Source: a phage
Direction: 5' to 3' (one strand)
Sequence record: PV357171.2
Length of the DNA stretch: 64,000 nucleotides
Position 1 is the first letter of the stretch. Every line of letters starts with the position of its first letter. This document shows positions 22,189 to 40,813 of the stretch, piece after piece. Made by a program: the position numbers and the translations under genes. Under the pieces are notes generated by a model. It searched no databases. It saw nothing but the letters and a program-made list of their open reading frames with translations, and was not told where the DNA came from.

Positions 22189-22465
22189 ATTTTATTTCCT
22201 CTTTAAAGATTAATTTCGATTTGTTAATTGCGATTAGTGGGTTAGTGTCGATTACTAAACGTGGTATCCATACTGGAACATATTGCATGTCCAAGCTAGG
22301 ATCGTTTGTAAACTTGTATTCGGCATAATTTCGTAGACTTAAAATTCCTAGATATTCTGCCAGTTGTCTATTAGACAATTTATTTGGATTATCAACTATC
22401 GTTGATTCATTCAAAATGAATGAGGAACCTACCAATAATTGGTGAGCATCAGGCTCTGTAAGCAT
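22181..22465 (-). CDS. hypothetical protein
   Basis: 94-aa ORF downstream of two tandem early promoters. Confidence 0.4.
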   Translation of the reverse strand: MLTEPDAHQLLVGSSFILNESTIVDNPNKLSNRQLAEYLGILSLRNYAEYKFTNDPSLDMQYVPVWIPRLVIDTNPLIAINKSKLIFKEEIKYG

Positions 22466-22602: not shown

Positions 22603-22673
22603 CTAAAATTTTTATTTTTCTGCTTCGGACTTTCTTATCAATCCGAAACTTTCTCTCTCAAATTTATGTATAT

Positions 22674-22702
22674 ATTATACATCATTTATGAGCTGTTGCC
22701 AA
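22674..22702 (-). promoter_or_regulatory. early promoter, second copy (TTGGCA, 17 bp, TATAAT), overlapping 3' end of helicase gene
   Basis: Same -10 and downstream ATAAATTTGAGAGAG cassette about 100 bp upstream of the first copy. Confidence 0.55.
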
Positions 22703-34885: not shown

Positions 34886-35344
34886 TTAATTTGGATAGAG
34901 TTCGGACTTAAAATTAGCCCTAACTTTTTTAGCCTCTTCTATAGTATTGCACTGCTGGTACTTACGAATAGATCCTTTCTGCATTAGCACACAATATTTA
35001 TCGCCCCTCATGTAGATATTAGGCTCGCCCAACTTATTGTCTTTACGCACATTAATATTGTGCATTTGCTTAGATCTATTGGAGTCTTCTAAATTCTCTA
35101 TAAAGTTGCAATCTTTAATCCTGTTTTTGTGGTCTATCTCTTCTGGTATGTACCCCTTATGATATAAGAATACCAGCTGATGCTCTCCCCAGTGCCTACG
35201 CTTAAACCCTATTCTTATATACCCTTTATGTTTACCCCCGGCAAACTTACCTACTAGACTCTTCTGTCTTGTTTTCTTCCATTTAAGATGGCCTGTTTCA
35301 GGATCATACTCAAAAGCCTCTCTAACCTCTTCCTGTGTTATCAT
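34886..35344 (-). CDS. HNH homing endonuclease
   Basis: GYIRIGF...HQLVFLYHKGYIP..IDHKNRIKDCNFIENLE motif. Confidence 0.7.
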   Translation of the reverse strand: MITQEEVREAFEYDPETGHLKWKKTRQKSLVGKFAGGKHKGYIRIGFKRRHWGEHQLVFLYHKGYIPEEIDHKNRIKDCNFIENLEDSNRSKQMHNINVRKDNKLGEPNIYMRGDKYCVLMQKGSIRKYQQCNTIEEAKKVRANFKSELYPN

Positions 35345-35582: not shown

Positions 35583-38346
35583 CTAGCTCTGACATTGCTT
35601 CCTCGTGCATCTGACGTTCTTCCTCTGTCATGAATTTGAAAGGAATTGGCATACACTCGATTTTACAATAGGTTCTGTACCAGTCTACGATATTCTCCGT
35701 GTTCATATCTTTACCAATACCCATCATACCAAGATACATTCTAGCATATTTTGGGTTAGCACTCTGACCTGTTTTAAGGAAGAAATCTTTCTTCTTACCT
35801 TTCAGAGCTTCTATGAAAGGTTTGATAGTGACATTTGAACACTTCTTAATATCTTCCCAGAACATCTCATGCATCTTATGGAAGAATGCAGCTCGATCAT
35901 TCGGCTTATCTTTGATATATTGTTCAACATGCTCAACGGTTACATCTTTAATAGACTCCAGATGATAATAGCGAACAAGAAGTAGTTTAGCTTCATACGC
36001 ATCCGCATGACGTGGAGCACAATAATCAGGAGTTGAGTGCAGAATAGCTTTGATTCGCTCTTCTGTATACTCTTTACCAGCACCTTCAATAGTTCCCCAG
36101 CTTTCACTGAAAATATCAATAGTTGCACCCTGATCAAGTAAGTAATAACGTAAAGTACTAGTATAGTTCCTAGATTCCAGCTCCCTGCGACGTGCGTATA
36201 ATTGCTGTGCTAACTCCAGCCAACCCTCATCAATATTATATTGTTCAGAACCTGCGGAGAATCCACTAGTGGATTTATCAATAAAATAATAGATATTCTG
36301 AGCACCACGGTCGCGCCTGATTGCTTGGAAACGCATGTTTGGCGCTTGATTACTGGTTCTAGTAATAACAAATACGTTATCAAAATAGTTGAAGTCAACT
36401 CCACTCGTTACGGATGGACTACATAATAAGCAATCAATTTGTTGATCAATTAGCTCATTAGTTGTATAATCCAGAATACGTCGAATATCCACATCTGAGG
36501 TAGAGTTTGAATGGATTTCCTTAACTAACGCACCCGTATTACGACGCAGTGCCATACCCTTCTCATTCAGTTCATCCGGTCCACAGTCAGATACTAGGAT
36601 AGATTTTTCACCCATCTCTAGAGATGTCTGAAGTGCAACCCAAATACTGGATTCATCCGGGAACTCATAAGCATGAGCTTTTGATAGCATTTTACGGTGA
36701 TGATTATAGAATGCAACTGGTTTATCGAACTCAATCAAAGAACCATATGCTTCAATTGTTTCAGCACTAATATCACCATCTGATAGTATAATGATTTTTG
36801 CAGTTGCAAGAATATCACGAAGAACCTGAATACACTCACGACGTTGTTTAACAACCGGGGCGAATAATAGGTCATTCATTACTGCATCACATTCATCGAT
36901 AAAGATTGCATCAATTTGACCAATAAAACTCTTGAACTTATGCAAAGAGTGAATAGTTGTGGACATACGGTCAATAGCACCACGCTTAAAATTAAGCATA
37001 TCTACAGACTTATCATATTGTCCTGCACTAAATTTCTTGGCATTTGAAGACACCAGTGCTCTAGTATTGGTAATTGCTAAGAAATTACCTTTAATAACTC
37101 CTGAATCCAGCCAACGAACAACAGCCGTTGTTTTACCTGTGCCTAGACTTGCTTTTACAAAAGTCATATAGCCTTCTGGTGGTACAGTATTTAATTTCAA
37201 GAAGTTGTCGGTCTCTAGTGAATTAGTTTCTAGCTTTTTAAGTGGAATACCTTTTAAAATATCCGGTATATCACGTTTAGAATTATTAACAAACGCTTTC
37301 AGAGCCTGCTTACGACCGTTGTTAAAGTAATCTTGAATATTACGACTATTATCTTTAGTTGCAATATATTCTGATAAGGCTGGACGGATTTCTTTTTCTA
37401 GCCATGCGAAGTCAACACCATCCTCTAAAGCTCTGTGATAGAGTTTAGGTATGATACGTAGGTACACTCCATCCTCAGCTTCTTCTAGTTCGCTGATAGT
37501 TTCCTCTACTTTATCAGAGGCAGCTTTTTTACCTTTAATTTGATCGAGTAAAGAGTAAAACTCCTCTTTAAACTCACCTCTAGTTGTTTCATAATCAACT
37601 AGATTATTGGGTAAGTTTACCTTAGAACCCTTAACAAATACCAGACGTGAAGCACCCTCCGCTTTAAACGGATCTACTATACCATCATTAAATAACGGAT
37701 CTGCAAAATAATGGAGCTGTACGGAAGAGTAATAAGCTAAGTCGGCAATATCAAAGCCATACTTTTGTCTACTACTTTCGTTGATAGATGTAAATAAGAA
37801 TTTGATTTGACCCTGAGTCACTTTAATATTAGATTCTAGTATTAAGTGCATTCGGATACCTGGTTTTAGCCCGGCCGAAGACGATGCATGAGCGATAAAC
37901 CCTGCATCAAGAGGAAACATATCCTCACTAATACTATTTAACATTCTAATAATATGTCGAGCCATGCCAACAAGATCAAACTTGTTACAACCACCTGTAT
38001 CTACAATACCATCCACGTCCATTGCGATTATATGACTTGGGTTAGATACATTAAAGTTGCCCTTCTTACGTCGCACATTATTTTTAGGTGCAAGACATCG
38101 ACCTCGTACCGCAACGATATGAGGGTCAGACGTTAAACGTCTCATAAGAGGAAGCATTTCTACTAGGGTTTGAGGATCAACTTCATCAATTACATCAAAC
38201 TTGAAGGGCATTGAAGCTGGTTTACCTTCAGGATGCTTTGAGGAAAATCTTTTAGCAAAAAGATAATCTTCTGCTTTAACTTCTCGCCAATTACCTGTGG
38301 CTAAATCGCGATGAAATCCTGCATGACCTTGTAGGATTGAGAACAC
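35557..38346 (-). CDS. replication origin-binding-protein-like SF2 helicase/ATPase
   Basis: Walker A (ASLGTGKTTAV), DExx-like box (FIDECDA), about 930 aa; probable GTG start at 38346 seven nt after AGGAG (ORF track extends to 38424 with TTG). Confidence 0.55.
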   Translation of the reverse strand: MFSILQGHAGFHRDLATGNWREVKAEDYLFAKRFSSKHPEGKPASMPFKFDVIDEVDPQTLVEMLPLMRRLTSDPHIVAVRGRCLAPKNNVRRKKGNFNVSNPSHIIAMDVDGIVDTGGCNKFDLVGMARHIIRMLNSISEDMFPLDAGFIAHASSSAGLKPGIRMHLILESNIKVTQGQIKFLFTSINESSRQKYGFDIADLAYYSSVQLHYFADPLFNDGIVDPFKAEGASRLVFVKGSKVNLPNNLVDYETTRGEFKEEFYSLLDQIKGKKAASDKVEETISELEEAEDGVYLRIIPKLYHRALEDGVDFAWLEKEIRPALSEYIATKDNSRNIQDYFNNGRKQALKAFVNNSKRDIPDILKGIPLKKLETNSLETDNFLKLNTVPPEGYMTFVKASLGTGKTTAVVRWLDSGVIKGNFLAITNTRALVSSNAKKFSAGQYDKSVDMLNFKRGAIDRMSTTIHSLHKFKSFIGQIDAIFIDECDAVMNDLLFAPVVKQRRECIQVLRDILATAKIIILSDGDISAETIEAYGSLIEFDKPVAFYNHHRKMLSKAHAYEFPDESSIWVALQTSLEMGEKSILVSDCGPDELNEKGMALRRNTGALVKEIHSNSTSDVDIRRILDYTTNELIDQQIDCLLCSPSVTSGVDFNYFDNVFVITRTSNQAPNMRFQAIRRDRGAQNIYYFIDKSTSGFSAGSEQYNIDEGWLELAQQLYARRRELESRNYTSTLRYYLLDQGATIDIFSESWGTIEGAGKEYTEERIKAILHSTPDYCAPRHADAYEAKLLLVRYYHLESIKDVTVEHVEQYIKDKPNDRAAFFHKMHEMFWEDIKKCSNVTIKPFIEALKGKKKDFFLKTGQSANPKYARMYLGMMGIGKDMNTENIVDWYRTYCKIECMPIPFKFMTEEERQMHEEAMSELGARNDSEE

Positions 38347-38843
38347 AACAATACTCCTGTGTTGGAAATGAAATAAGTTTTCTTTAGGACTATTCAGAAA
38401 GAATAGAACAACTGTTACTGTCAATTTCTCAACAAATTAATCGCAAATACTGAAGTGGGGTGGCAACTTCCACTTTCACGCTACACTGCCGCTTCACTAT
38501 ACCGCACAAATCCTTGAGGATGGCCGCTAAGCCAGATTTGCTCACCTAATGCTTCATGTACTAGCTCATACTAGATGCAGTATACCTTACGTCATCACTT
38601 CTCAGAGTTTTTCACTCTTCCCGTCTCACTTCACAACCACCTCACACTAGGTTGCTTCGAGGCCTTACCAGGGTTCCTACGGGGTGTAGATCGCTAAGTA
38701 TTCTATTAACTATTTGTTTAAAAACTAACACGTAACAGTTAAAACAACCCTTAATGGGGCAGCCTAACTGTTCCGTATCGCGGATTGTAAACAAGAAAAA
38801 TTAGCAAAATCAGTTTTTACTAATGTCTCTCAATTATGGGAAT

Positions 38844-38873
38844 ATTATACTATAAAATAATACTCCCTTGCAA
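38844..38873 (-). promoter_or_regulatory. early promoter directing transcription into ORF-free region 38430-38836
   Basis: Reverse complement TTGCAA, 18 bp, TATAATATTCCCATAATTGAGAGA. Confidence 0.55.
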
Positions 38874-38881
38874 ATGAAATT

Positions 38882-39334
38882 TTACTGGATTGATTCCCTA
38901 CCGTATAATTGACCTCTAAACATCTTGGCCATAGAACATGCAACCTCATAGTTATCATATGTTCCTTTAACTATACGTTTACGGTTAATAGTAAATACTA
39001 CTTGCCAGTTCTTACTACCAGAAGGGTAAACATGCATTCCTTTCTTATACTTGATATTTCTTAGATTACCGGATACTGTCTGCTCTCTAAGATTTTCAAT
39101 ACGATCATCACCTTTTACAGTATTCACATGATCTACTAAATCAGGTAAGTATCCGTGATGCATTAAGAAGATAGCTCTGTGTCGGAGCATAGTTCTACTC
39201 CCTAGAGAAATACGGTAATAACCATTTCCCGTTGAAACACAACATTCCTTGCCTGCATTTCTTCCTGTAGTTCTAAATAATTTTCCATCTTCATATCGGA
39301 AATTATCTAAAAGTTCCTGTTGTGTGAGCGACAT
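38882..39334 (-). CDS. HNH homing endonuclease
   Basis: HNH motif (HRAIFLMHHGYLPDLVDHVN....DDRIENLRE); start at ATG 39334 after GGAGG. Confidence 0.65.
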   Translation of the reverse strand: MSLTQQELLDNFRYEDGKLFRTTGRNAGKECCVSTGNGYYRISLGSRTMLRHRAIFLMHHGYLPDLVDHVNTVKGDDRIENLREQTVSGNLRNIKYKKGMHVYPSGSKNWQVVFTINRKRIVKGTYDNYEVACSMAKMFRGQLYGRESIQ

Positions 39335-39473
39335 CTTTACCTCCAATACATATATTATTACATAATCCACCCAATTTGTCAATGACAATTTATTCATACT
39401 GTCAATTAACTGGAAAGATTATATAATAATCCGAGCCAAAATGACTCGGTAGTCAGAGTTCAGCTAATAAAAA

Positions 39474-39866
39474 TCATTCATCATTCAGACCTGGAACATA
39501 GATCCCAACATGGTTTAACTGTTCTTTAGCTTCTTTGAGAATATCTGGAGTGTACTCCCAAATATCATCTTCCACCTGTAAAAGATGGGGCGAACAACCA
39601 TCATCAGGCATACGACATATAGCCAAACCACGTGGATGGAACAAAGAGAAATTTAGGGCAACAATTAAACCCATAGCAGACAACTCATTCCAATCCAATT
39701 CCCATTCCCTAGCGTAGCCTGATAGGAAAACACCAATACAGGGATCGTCTATTTGCTGCTCCGGAAAAGTGAAGGAGGCTTGTCTTACCCCCAACCAACG
39801 TTGTAGCAGCTTCTCCGCACGCTTCACCAAACTAGGATCAATCTGACGCCAATATACTTGTTCCAT
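39474..39866 (-). CDS. hypothetical protein (paralog of adjacent ORF)
   Basis: Shares PCIG...W.EL.EMGL..ALN..LF.P block with 39876..40304. Confidence 0.45.
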   Translation of the reverse strand: MEQVYWRQIDPSLVKRAEKLLQRWLGVRQASFTFPEQQIDDPCIGVFLSGYAREWELDWNELSAMGLIVALNFSLFHPRGLAICRMPDDGCSPHLLQVEDDIWEYTPDILKEAKEQLNHVGIYVPGLNDE

Positions 39867-39875
39867 TCTGCCTCC

Positions 39876-40304
39876 TTAAGCAGTTAAATCTGGGATCATA
39901 TACCCGAAACGTCGAAGTTTCTGAATCCCCTCATTTACTTCTTCCGGTGAATAAGACCAACCATAACGTTCATTAACCTGAAAACCAGGAGATTCACTAG
40001 TTTTATAGTTAACAACTAGGCGATGCTTAGCAGGCATAAACAGCTTATAATTTAACGCAAAAACTAAGCCCATTTCATCTAACTCTTTCCAGCCTACAAT
40101 CTCTTCAAGACCCTCCTCTACCTGAACAATTAAACCAATACAGGGGGCCTCATCAATATCATCTTTAAAAGCAAAGGAGATTTCATTATTCTCACACCAT
40201 ATTTTCAAGGAGTTAATAGCCTCATTATACAGGCTAGCTGGGAGAGTACGCCAAAAGTTAATCAAAATTGGATTAGCTTCTTTAGAGAATACATTATTGA
40301 ACAT
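39876..40304 (-). CDS. hypothetical protein (paralog of adjacent ORF)
   Basis: Tandem paralog of 39474..39866. Confidence 0.45.
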   Translation of the reverse strand: MFNNVFSKEANPILINFWRTLPASLYNEAINSLKIWCENNEISFAFKDDIDEAPCIGLIVQVEEGLEEIVGWKELDEMGLVFALNYKLFMPAKHRLVVNYKTSESPGFQVNERYGWSYSPEEVNEGIQKLRRFGYMIPDLTA

Positions 40305-40306
40305 AT

Positions 40307-40813
40307 TTACACCTTAAATTGTTGTAAGGATTTACACATTTCAAGATCTGGGCTAAATTCTAGCATATAGCTAACAGCTTTTAAATCTTGAAGATTTATC
40401 CCAGTCCTACCGTTGACTATAACCGTTGGATACTGATACATCATAGCACCCGCATCATCAAGCACACACCAATGTTTGAGCTTATGCTTTTCAACGAAAC
40501 GAAGAACAGAATTACCCCTAGATAATCCACCCCCCGTAAAATCCGTTGTACCAAGAAAACGATCGATAAGACCTAATCCGGTCATAATCTGAACGTTCTC
40601 CATCTCATTTCTAACAGAGAACCAAGATGATACCCCAACAATCATTATCGGAGAAGGACGAATAAAATCCTGAAAAGCCTTGAGAAGCGGTTTGAAAACC
40701 CAGTCACTTCCAAAGAAAATCTTTTCATTATCAGGTGCATGATGGTGGGAGATGCTCGAATTGAGCACCCCATCAATATCTAGAAAAATAATTGGAGTAT
40801 TACTTATTTCCAT
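40307..40813 (-). CDS. HAD-superfamily phosphatase-like protein
   Basis: N-terminal motif I FLDIDGVLN (DxDGxL-type). Confidence 0.5.
   Translation of the reverse strand: MEISNTPIIFLDIDGVLNSSISHHHAPDNEKIFFGSDWVFKPLLKAFQDFIRPSPIMIVGVSSWFSVRNEMENVQIMTGLGLIDRFLGTTDFTGGGLSRGNSVLRFVEKHKLKHWCVLDDAGAMMYQYPTVIVNGRTGINLQDLKAVSYMLEFSPDLEMCKSLQQFKV

Follow-up and report, generated by a model that had tools for sequence, protein, structure and literature searches.

A structured RNA of about 490 nucleotides in the leader of the D2 helicase gene of T5-family phages

The stretch of phage DNA studied here, 64,000 nucleotides (nt) of sequence record PV357171.2 and referred to below as the window, derives from a T5-like phage (Tequintavirus) and contains the gene of the D2 helicase on its minus strand. 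Along that strand, an open reading frame (ORF) for an HNH_3 homing endonuclease is followed by a promoter, a gene-free stretch and then D2, whose GTG start codon lies at position 38346 (Table 1). The region and its flanks are 99.2% identical to Escherichia phage vB_EcoS_MM-1 and matched 447 phage records, and in the public records the gene-free stretch is either left blank or annotated with short spurious hypothetical proteins. The roughly 490 nt that separate the promoter from the D2 start hold no conserved ORF, and the analysis below identifies them as a large, previously unannotated RNA in the D2 leader of T5-family phages.

A preliminary description of the sequence had noted a minus-strand promoter with its usual downstream element and no ORF after it, an ORF-free and GC-richer stretch, and the probable GTG start of an origin-binding-like helicase gene. 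All three observations hold. The promoter found by our scan is followed by the element CATAATTGAGAGA, from which the next gene start is about 480 nt away, and transcription probably begins near 38837. This promoter belongs to a family with a downstream TTGAGAG element; the pattern TATAAT-N6-14-TGAGAG occurs five times in the window, compared with 0.24 copies expected. In the three other family promoters that were checked, an ORF starts 10–13 nt past the element in two cases and about 190 nt past it in one. The –10 box and the following GAGAGA are kept in all T5-like, Sugarland, L030 (a lineage in our collection) and Eos loci. The only minus-strand ORFs in the stretch encode 50 amino acids (aa; TTG start) and 38 aa (GTG start), and both are broken by stops in relatives. 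The GC fraction is 0.43–0.48 at 38400–38700, as against about 0.38 in the flanking genes and 0.30 at 38700–39000. The GTG at 38346, preceded by AGGAG at 38358–38354, agrees with the annotated D2 start in vB_EcoS_MM-1. D2 itself matches Pfam Herpes_ori_bp (E = 3.4e-7), PHROG 3712 and structures of herpesvirus origin-binding proteins (UL9-type) in the PDB, and the biochemistry of the T5 D2 helicase has been described (PMC3632103).

To characterise the gene-free stretch we gathered homologous loci, 33 from IMG/VR plus several from GenBank phages, and the main alignment comprised 30 sequences (28 distinct) representing both T5-like alleles of the element (A and B), Sugarland-like phages and lineage L030. 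Folding of eight representatives with RNAalifold gave 97 pairs, 40 of which were compensatory. Over the 28 distinct sequences the consensus contained 127 pairs in 20 helices that were 94.8% paired, compared with 37–47% in slid controls, in which the 3' partners had been moved by 1–3 columns. Changes on both sides of a pair, i.e. compensatory changes, were seen in 52 pairs versus 14–19 in the slid controls, and the covariation score was 0.304 versus 0.05–0.08; the observed values were reached by none of 500 shuffles. It should be kept in mind that the structure was predicted on the same alignment as was used for scoring, but the excess over the slid controls is still large.

The covariation data also tell which strand folds. 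The paired cells contained 566 G·U against 37 A·C, indicating that the fold belongs to the D2-sense strand. RNAalifold gave –155 kcal/mol and 127 pairs for the sense strand versus –127 kcal/mol and 112 pairs for the antisense strand, the z-scores of the single-sequence minimum free energy (MFE) were –2.8 for the minus (sense) and –1.5 for the plus strand, and the orientation of the promoter agrees with a sense-strand fold. Taken together, the G·U asymmetry, the fold energies, the z-scores and the promoter direction demonstrate selection on a D2-sense RNA and not on a DNA cruciform. The two generic signs of a structured RNA under selection, compensatory changes above controls and a strand-specific G·U excess, are both present. 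For distant homologues the single-sequence MFE z-scores were mixed, ranging from –3.6 to +1.2. We are highly confident that a structured RNA exists throughout the family. A structured RNA had been one of the options in the preliminary description, which had also called for comparative folding across T5-like genomes; the compensatory changes, far above the controls, the D2-sense G·U excess and the conservation over several genera now strongly support it.

The helices of the RNA are listed in Table 1. When the A and B groups were folded separately with RNAalifold, they gave the same layout and the same closing stem. P1 contains 19 pairs that are 98.5% paired, five of them with compensatory changes, for example UUAGUAAAA/UUUUGCUAA versus UUAGACAA/UUGUCUAA in L030. 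Together with P2 it makes up a nearly invariant 5' module, which has 95–96% identity to T5 and Eps7-type phages. The closing stem P3 is AU-rich and nearly continuous over about 32 base pairs (bp); its helices 3–5 comprise 27 pairs, 12 of them compensatory (e.g. AACUGUUAC/GUAACAGUU versus AACUAUUAC/GUAAUAGUU), and an exact inverted repeat (I5) within it links 38410–38418 with 38732–38740. An alignment of the window with AKFV33 and Eps7 revealed a compensatory change between positions 313 nt apart, AACTGTTAC...GTAACAGTT versus AACTATTAC...GTAATAGTT. The short inverted repeats pointed out earlier are real, but the partners were in part others than proposed: TAACTGTTAC (38741–38732) covaries with the distant GTAACAGTT (38418–38410) and not with the nearby AACAGTTA. 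The local hairpin AACAGUUA/UAACUGUU suggested in its place was rejected, as it is lost in the B allele (C·A mismatch) and in Sugarland, whereas the distal pairing covaries.

Inside P3 lies the multibranch core, with 90 G versus 54 C. Compensatory changes are found here also within alleles (CUACAC/GUGUAG to CUGCGU/GCGCAG, AGAGU/ACUCU to GGAGU/ACUCC, and GUGG/CCAC to GGGG/CCCC). Helix 15, the stem of the hairpin bearing the CUUAGCGG motif, has eight pairs of which seven are compensatory, and is 99.6% paired. The motif resembles the tRNA D-loop, part of 5S rRNA and the branch site of retron Ec86 over 7–9 nt; we take these resemblances to be due to chance. The repeat GAAGTGG/CCACTTC, listed in the preliminary description, corresponds to helix 18, and covariation supports its AGTGG/CCACT part as a local hairpin; the loop GUUGCCACCCC of this hairpin is kept in A-type, Sugarland and L030 sequences. 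The 3' hairpin covaries as CUAUC/GAUAG in Sugarland, CCAUC/GAUGG in Eos and CUUUCC/GGAAAG in L030. The last hairpin holds the ribosome-binding site (RBS) of D2: its Shine-Dalgarno (SD) sequence, AGGAG, extends from the upper end of the 5' arm into the loop, and the 3' arm contains the GTG codon (38346–38344). Sugarland starts D2 with AUG instead and has U in place of C at the upstream pairing position (AACAU/AUGUU), so that the start codon covaries with its partner. This embedding of SD and start codon, and the lack of any terminator-like site between promoter and D2 in a scan of the stretch, establish the leader position proposed earlier. A scan for pseudoknots and tertiary contacts gave no convincing candidate besides the nested helices.

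Table 1. Position of the RNA elements and of neighbouring features in the window; nt 1 of the RNA numbering is window position 38838.
Feature	Position (RNA numbering)	Strand	Description
P1, 5' hairpin	38792..38832 (nt 7-47)	-	GAGAGA.CAUUAGUAAAA-loop-UUUUGCUAAU.UUUUCU
P2, second 5' hairpin	38744..38788 (nt 51-95)	-	holds the conserved AUACRGAACAGUYNGGCUGC; 16 pairs, 98.6% paired
Closing stem P3, 5' arm	38708..38741 (nt 98-131)	-	partner 38409-38443
Closing stem P3, 3' arm	38409..38443 (nt 396-430)	-	partner 38708-38741
Multibranch core, ~265 nt	38444..38707	-	G-rich, C-poor; A and B alleles; helices kept
Core hairpin with invariant mini-hairpin GGCUUAGCGGCC (GGCU-UAGC-GGCC cap)	38506..38541	-	CUUAGCGG motif at 38531-38524
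Hairpin GAAAGUGG-AAGUUGCCACC-CCACUUC	38452..38477	-	helix 18; stem AGUGG-AAGUUGCCACC-CCACU
3' hairpin CUAUUC-UUUCU-GAAUAG	38390..38406 (nt 433-449)	-	covaries
RBS hairpin AACACAG-GAGUAUUG-UUGUGUU	38342..38363 (nt 476-497)	-	helix 20
Sigma-70-type T5 early promoter	38844..38873	-	TTGCAA (38873-38868), 18-nt spacer, TATAAT (38849-38844); promoter scan
D2 gene, 929 aa	35557..38346	-	UL9-like superfamily 2 (SF2) bipolar helicase; usual annotation 'replication origin binding protein'
HNH_3 homing-endonuclease ORF, outside the RNA element	38882..39397	-	directly upstream of the promoter; missing from T5 and Eps7

The different parts of the element have evolved at very different rates. In the alignment of the window with AKFV33 and Eps7, the ~150 nt that follow the promoter hardly vary, the next ~300 nt have diverged at unchanged length around a conserved GGCTTAGCGGCC island, and the final ~50 nt are again conserved. 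Identity to T5, calculated per 100 nt, was 96–98% in the upstream genes, 96% in the 5' module, 48–57% in the core and 77–95% in D2. Such a low identity between close relatives implies that the core has effectively been replaced, while helices and length stay in register. The architecture is maintained by compensatory mutation despite the rapid sequence turnover of the core. The modules also recombine, as seen from one locus (L034) in which a B-type core is joined to an A-type 3' flank. Three T5-like contigs from IMG/VR (L013, positions 1000–1200, L028 and L035) carry an insertion of 98 nt between P1 and P2, equivalent to about 38792 in the window. It is flanked by a TTTTTCTT direct repeat, occurs with either core allele and, within IMG/VR, is confined to this site. 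An 8-bp stem closes it off, and its fold is unremarkable (z = +0.3).

We then considered how far the element extends within Demerecviridae, where the RNA proved to be joined to D2 throughout the lineages examined. An ORF-poor gap of 500–850 nt precedes D2 in 12 of the 13 lineages examined, including Sugarland, Eos, L030, Proteus, Providencia and several genera of Vibrio phages, and the upstream neighbours differ between them. The exception is the metagenomic lineage L067. In Proteus phage PL1 and Providencia phages PR1 and PSTCR5 the gap has no alignable sequence in common with T5, and the MFE folds show a closing stem of 20–27 bp spanning 320–328 nt. Measured along the domain, the CUUAGCGG motif occupies the same relative position in PL1 and in the window (0.63–0.64). 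This motif is present as the sole sense-strand copy per locus in T5-like, Sugarland, L030, Proteus and Providencia phages and is found in the Eos leader as well, where the 3' hairpin and the stem around the motif show further compensatory changes. In PL1 (L005:1710–2000) the closing stem is followed by some 290 more non-coding nt with a second GCCUUAGCC motif in a similar context, and the domain may have been partially duplicated here.

The layout recurs in the Vibrio phages, where the gaps measure 666–841 nt: a promoter precedes a 5' module of ~110–160 nt that is conserved at 88–99%, and the core behind it exists in three or more alleles that cannot be aligned with one another. When the last 390 nt at the 3' side were folded for Vibrio phages Wyman, KIT04 and VPT02, 17 compensatory pairs were obtained versus 0–7 in slid controls. 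Homology in sequence between the Vibrio and the enterobacterial RNAs is only hinted at, by a common motif in which GAGA...CGUAG comes after a hairpin with a GAAA loop. The Vibrio RNAs contain two copies of the motif GUUGAAACRCYGAGAYACGUAG (L202:1335–1365 and 1570–1600; also in L203 and L204; Wyman, VPT02 and KIT04). AGAGUGAAAAACUCUGAGAAGUGAUGACGUAAGG of the T5 A-type core is similar to it, and the two may represent a module common to the whole family. A search of IMG/VR with the gapped pattern CTTAGCGG-N48-68-CCACCCC was unspecific, producing at least 120 matches that were mostly on unrelated contigs.

Comparison with known families gave no assignment. At E ≤ 10, Rfam 15 returned three sub-threshold matches in the region (two C/D snoRNA models and one miRNA precursor); in the whole window it found tRNAs only, and in ten homologous loci nothing in the leader. 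The Rfam/Infernal-type search that had been proposed earlier hence matched no family, and the families covered include riboswitches, group I/II introns, RNase P, tmRNA, 6S, ROOL, GOLLD, HEARO, C4/CI and Y RNA. ARAGORN detected no tRNA or tmRNA in the region, and nothing similar to the leader was found in E. coli genomes or plasmids. A group I intron was dismissed, given that there is no Rfam Intron_gpI match and no upstream exon, as the element begins at the promoter. A protein-coding gene was likewise dismissed: the 50-aa and 38-aa ORFs carry stops in the B allele (T5/Eps7-type), Sugarland and L030, stop-free stretches of the sense strand reach at most 39–62 codons and are not conserved, and homologous phages have no conserved protein-coding gene at this place, where the region itself is conserved. 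In the literature searched we found no description of the RNA, no T5 transcript map of the locus and no T5 origin defined at sequence level.

A replication origin of the classical DNA type, also among the earlier suggestions, found no support. Neither iterons, nor a cluster of DnaA boxes, nor a skew switch was seen, and an origin built on iterons, DnaA boxes or UL9-type sites was rejected, as the only direct repeats are short matches present in two copies. The one DnaA-like box, with one mismatch, is inside D2. The AT-richest stretch coincides with the promoter and P1, and an AT-rich unwinding element of any special kind was not seen. Over the minus-strand gene block (16000–45000) the plus-strand GC skew is about –0.05 to –0.15 below ~34 kb and about –0.16 to –0.23 at 34–45 kb; it tracks gene orientation, and a bidirectional origin at the D2 locus would be expected to give a change of the opposite sign.

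Some features of the surroundings deserve mention. The RNA–D2 unit is bracketed by two HNH_3 homing-endonuclease ORFs, the second one being located at 34886–35344 (minus strand), and with the upstream ORF the RNA promoter receives another –35/spacer sequence. An imperfect direct repeat of 25 nt (38350–38374 and 38856–38880, 76% identity) places ATTTCATTTCCAACACAGGAGTATT, just before the D2 start, alongside the similar ATTTCATTTGCAAGGGAGTATTATT of the promoter –35 region; this repeat could be due to chance or be a scar of the insertion of the HNH cassette. Upstream of the HNH ORF, at 39474–40813 (minus strand), are genes for two DUF7415 proteins and one HAD_SAK_2 protein, HAD_SAK_2 denoting the HAD domain found in RNA-repair proteins of the 'Swiss Army Knife' type, and relatives have Sir2-like genes still further upstream. 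Another promoter of the same family, TATAAT...TTTGAGAG at 22655–22679 (minus strand), is separated by ~190 nt from the first minus-strand ORF of 30 aa or more that follows it (starting at 22465) and may drive a second long leader.

With regard to function, we think it reasonably probable that the RNA is a structured leader or non-coding RNA (ncRNA) that is functionally coupled to D2. More tentatively, we favour a mode of action in which it is processed by RNase III and regulates D2 in cis. E. coli RNase III cuts long stems in the lambda N leader, in T7 early RNAs and in rRNA precursors. A stem of the kind such sites possess, at least ~20 bp in an early transcript before a gene start, is present in the T5 family, with ~32 bp in the A and B alleles and 20–27 bp in Proteus and Providencia phages. 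According to this model, host RNA polymerase would make the leader in the early phase of infection, at the 5' side of the D2 transcript, and the long double-stranded P3 would be cut by host RNase III. Cleavage would free the core as a discrete RNA and cut the D2 message off from the conserved 5' module, thereby setting how strongly D2 is translated from its weak, hairpin-embedded GTG. The invariant loop or loops and the 5' module would then probably be recognition sites for a protein, candidates being D2, another early protein or RNA polymerase.

Two known systems illustrate the model. The lambda N leader and the T7 RNase III sites are also early phage transcripts made from a strong promoter, with a conserved 5' cis module and a long stem before the RBS of a key early gene, and in those cases processing of the stem tunes translation. 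The T5 stem differs in enclosing a multibranch core of ~265 nt, it has no sequence or Rfam similarity to them, and its cleavage is a prediction. In the precursors of rRNA, too, the flanks of a structured RNA pair over ~30 bp and could direct excision; the likeness is one of architecture alone, the T5 element having no relation to rRNA.

Several observations weigh against processing and regulation in cis. The predicted cleavage derives solely from the length of the stem, and the literature found contains no transcript, 5'/3'-end or processing data for the region. The core, which is even larger in Vibrio phages, is far bigger than a translational operator requires. As regards alternative pairings of the SD, such as a riboswitch or translational operator would use, pyrimidine tracts of P1 and of the 3' hairpin can pair with the D2 SD; the long-range pairing between the 5' module and the SD/RBS scored no better than that of other leader windows. 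In L067, whose D2 is 49% identical to that of Proteus PL1, the gap measures 370 nt and is AU-rich and weakly folding. Finally, Proteus phage vB_PMC-PL1 (L005) has a perfect second promoter, TTGACA-18-TATAAT, which follows the RNA and immediately precedes the RBS of D2. D2 can be expressed without the leader in this phage, which favours an independent function of the RNA.

Such a function would be that of a stand-alone, trans-acting ncRNA: the excised core would be a stable, ornate RNA, or else a decoy or sponge, and would act on a host or phage factor, for instance in counter-defence, and its position before D2 would merely secure early and strong expression. Apart from the second promoter in PL1, the element's own strong early promoter, a long closing stem resembling rRNA processing stems and the tolerance of an optional 98-nt insertion between P1 and P2 speak for this, as does the very fast turnover of sequence around a preserved structure and an invariant loop motif, which is what would be expected in an arms race. 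Parallels are ROOL and GOLLD, which are likewise phage-carried, covariation-backed multi-helix RNAs of several hundred nt. Unlike these, the T5 RNA is not located beside tRNA genes, resides in a 5' leader tied to one protein gene and evolves much faster in its core sequence, and it matches neither in Rfam. The linkage to D2, moreover, persists from Escherichia to Vibrio phages (D2 identity 38–46%) despite changing upstream genes, and a purely trans-acting RNA is hard to reconcile with this. As no terminator-like site marks a 3' end and no partner protein or target has been identified either, we hold this explanation to be rather unlikely. Less credible by far is that the stretch is non-functional, consisting of remains of a decaying gene or of a mobile insertion with terminal inverted repeats, whose pairings are by-products. 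The discrete core alleles are indeed bounded by inverted repeats, an HNH endonuclease cassette is adjacent, and the 25-nt imperfect direct repeat flanks the element. This reading is contradicted by internal helices that covary in register both between and within alleles; the asymmetry between G·U and A·C reflects selection on one strand, and length, motif position and architecture are kept in at least five lineages whose stems lack sequence similarity. There is also no conserved ORF remnant, and the sequence is absent from E. coli genomes and plasmids. We therefore regard it as very improbable.

The remaining alternative is an RNA-dependent origin, at which the structured transcript would form a persistent RNA–DNA hybrid or a ribonucleoprotein (RNP) beside D2 and would prime synthesis or open the duplex, as the transcripts of ColE1 RNA II, T4 oriF/oriG and T7 origins do. 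In a fuller version, the RNase III-excised core and D2 would make up the RNA part of replication initiation (an RNA-specified or R-loop origin, or an initiator RNP), and, where T5-like phages co-infect, the alleles would confer replicon specificity. Linkage to the gene of a UL9-like helicase is family-wide, and initiator genes commonly adjoin their origins. The RNA is G-rich and C-poor, and its discrete, fast-changing core alleles would suit a determinant of replicon specificity. The locus lies near mid-genome, at 57–58 kb of 118 kb in MM-1, and an electron microscopy study of 1976 reportedly placed first-round initiation near the centre of the T5 genome; the literature found holds no mapping of the T5 origin at sequence level. 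Like ColE1 RNA II and the T4 and T7 primary-origin transcripts, the T5 RNA is a promoter-driven, structured, G-rich transcript of ~500 nt beside replication functions. It differs from them in running on into an mRNA and in having no antisense partner, known hybrid element, mapped origin or RNase H site. Herpesvirus oriS and oriL invite comparison since the D2 that adjoins the RNA belongs to the only phage homologue family of UL9. The herpesvirus origins, however, are short palindromes in which repeated UL9 boxes lie on either side of an AT-rich centre, whereas the T5 locus is without repeated boxes and its selected structure is a strand-specific RNA. The iterons, DnaA boxes and special AT-rich unwinding element are missing, as mentioned above, the GC skew follows gene orientation with a change in magnitude of the wrong sign, and hybrid formation at the locus is purely conjectural. 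In addition, the editing bias of recombitrons suggests that T5 replicates predominantly in one direction from one genome end (PMC10055335). Both the RNA-dependent origin and its fuller version are thus considered improbable.

The RNA of the D2 leader constitutes a new family whose general kind is already known. T5 is a classic model phage, and the sequenced genomes of its relatives number in the hundreds, with many of these phages under consideration for therapy or biocontrol. Within the replication module of this group an RNA of ~490 nt has been overlooked. With a near-invariant 5' module and a fast-changing core of kept fold, it is a candidate for a new family in the RNA databases. It also offers a handle on the control of the essential D2 helicase, on the start site of T5 replication and on early RNA processing. 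If the RNA were indeed part of an origin, the long-unmapped origin of T5 would thereby be located, and a new RNA-dependent mode of initiation would be found in a model phage.

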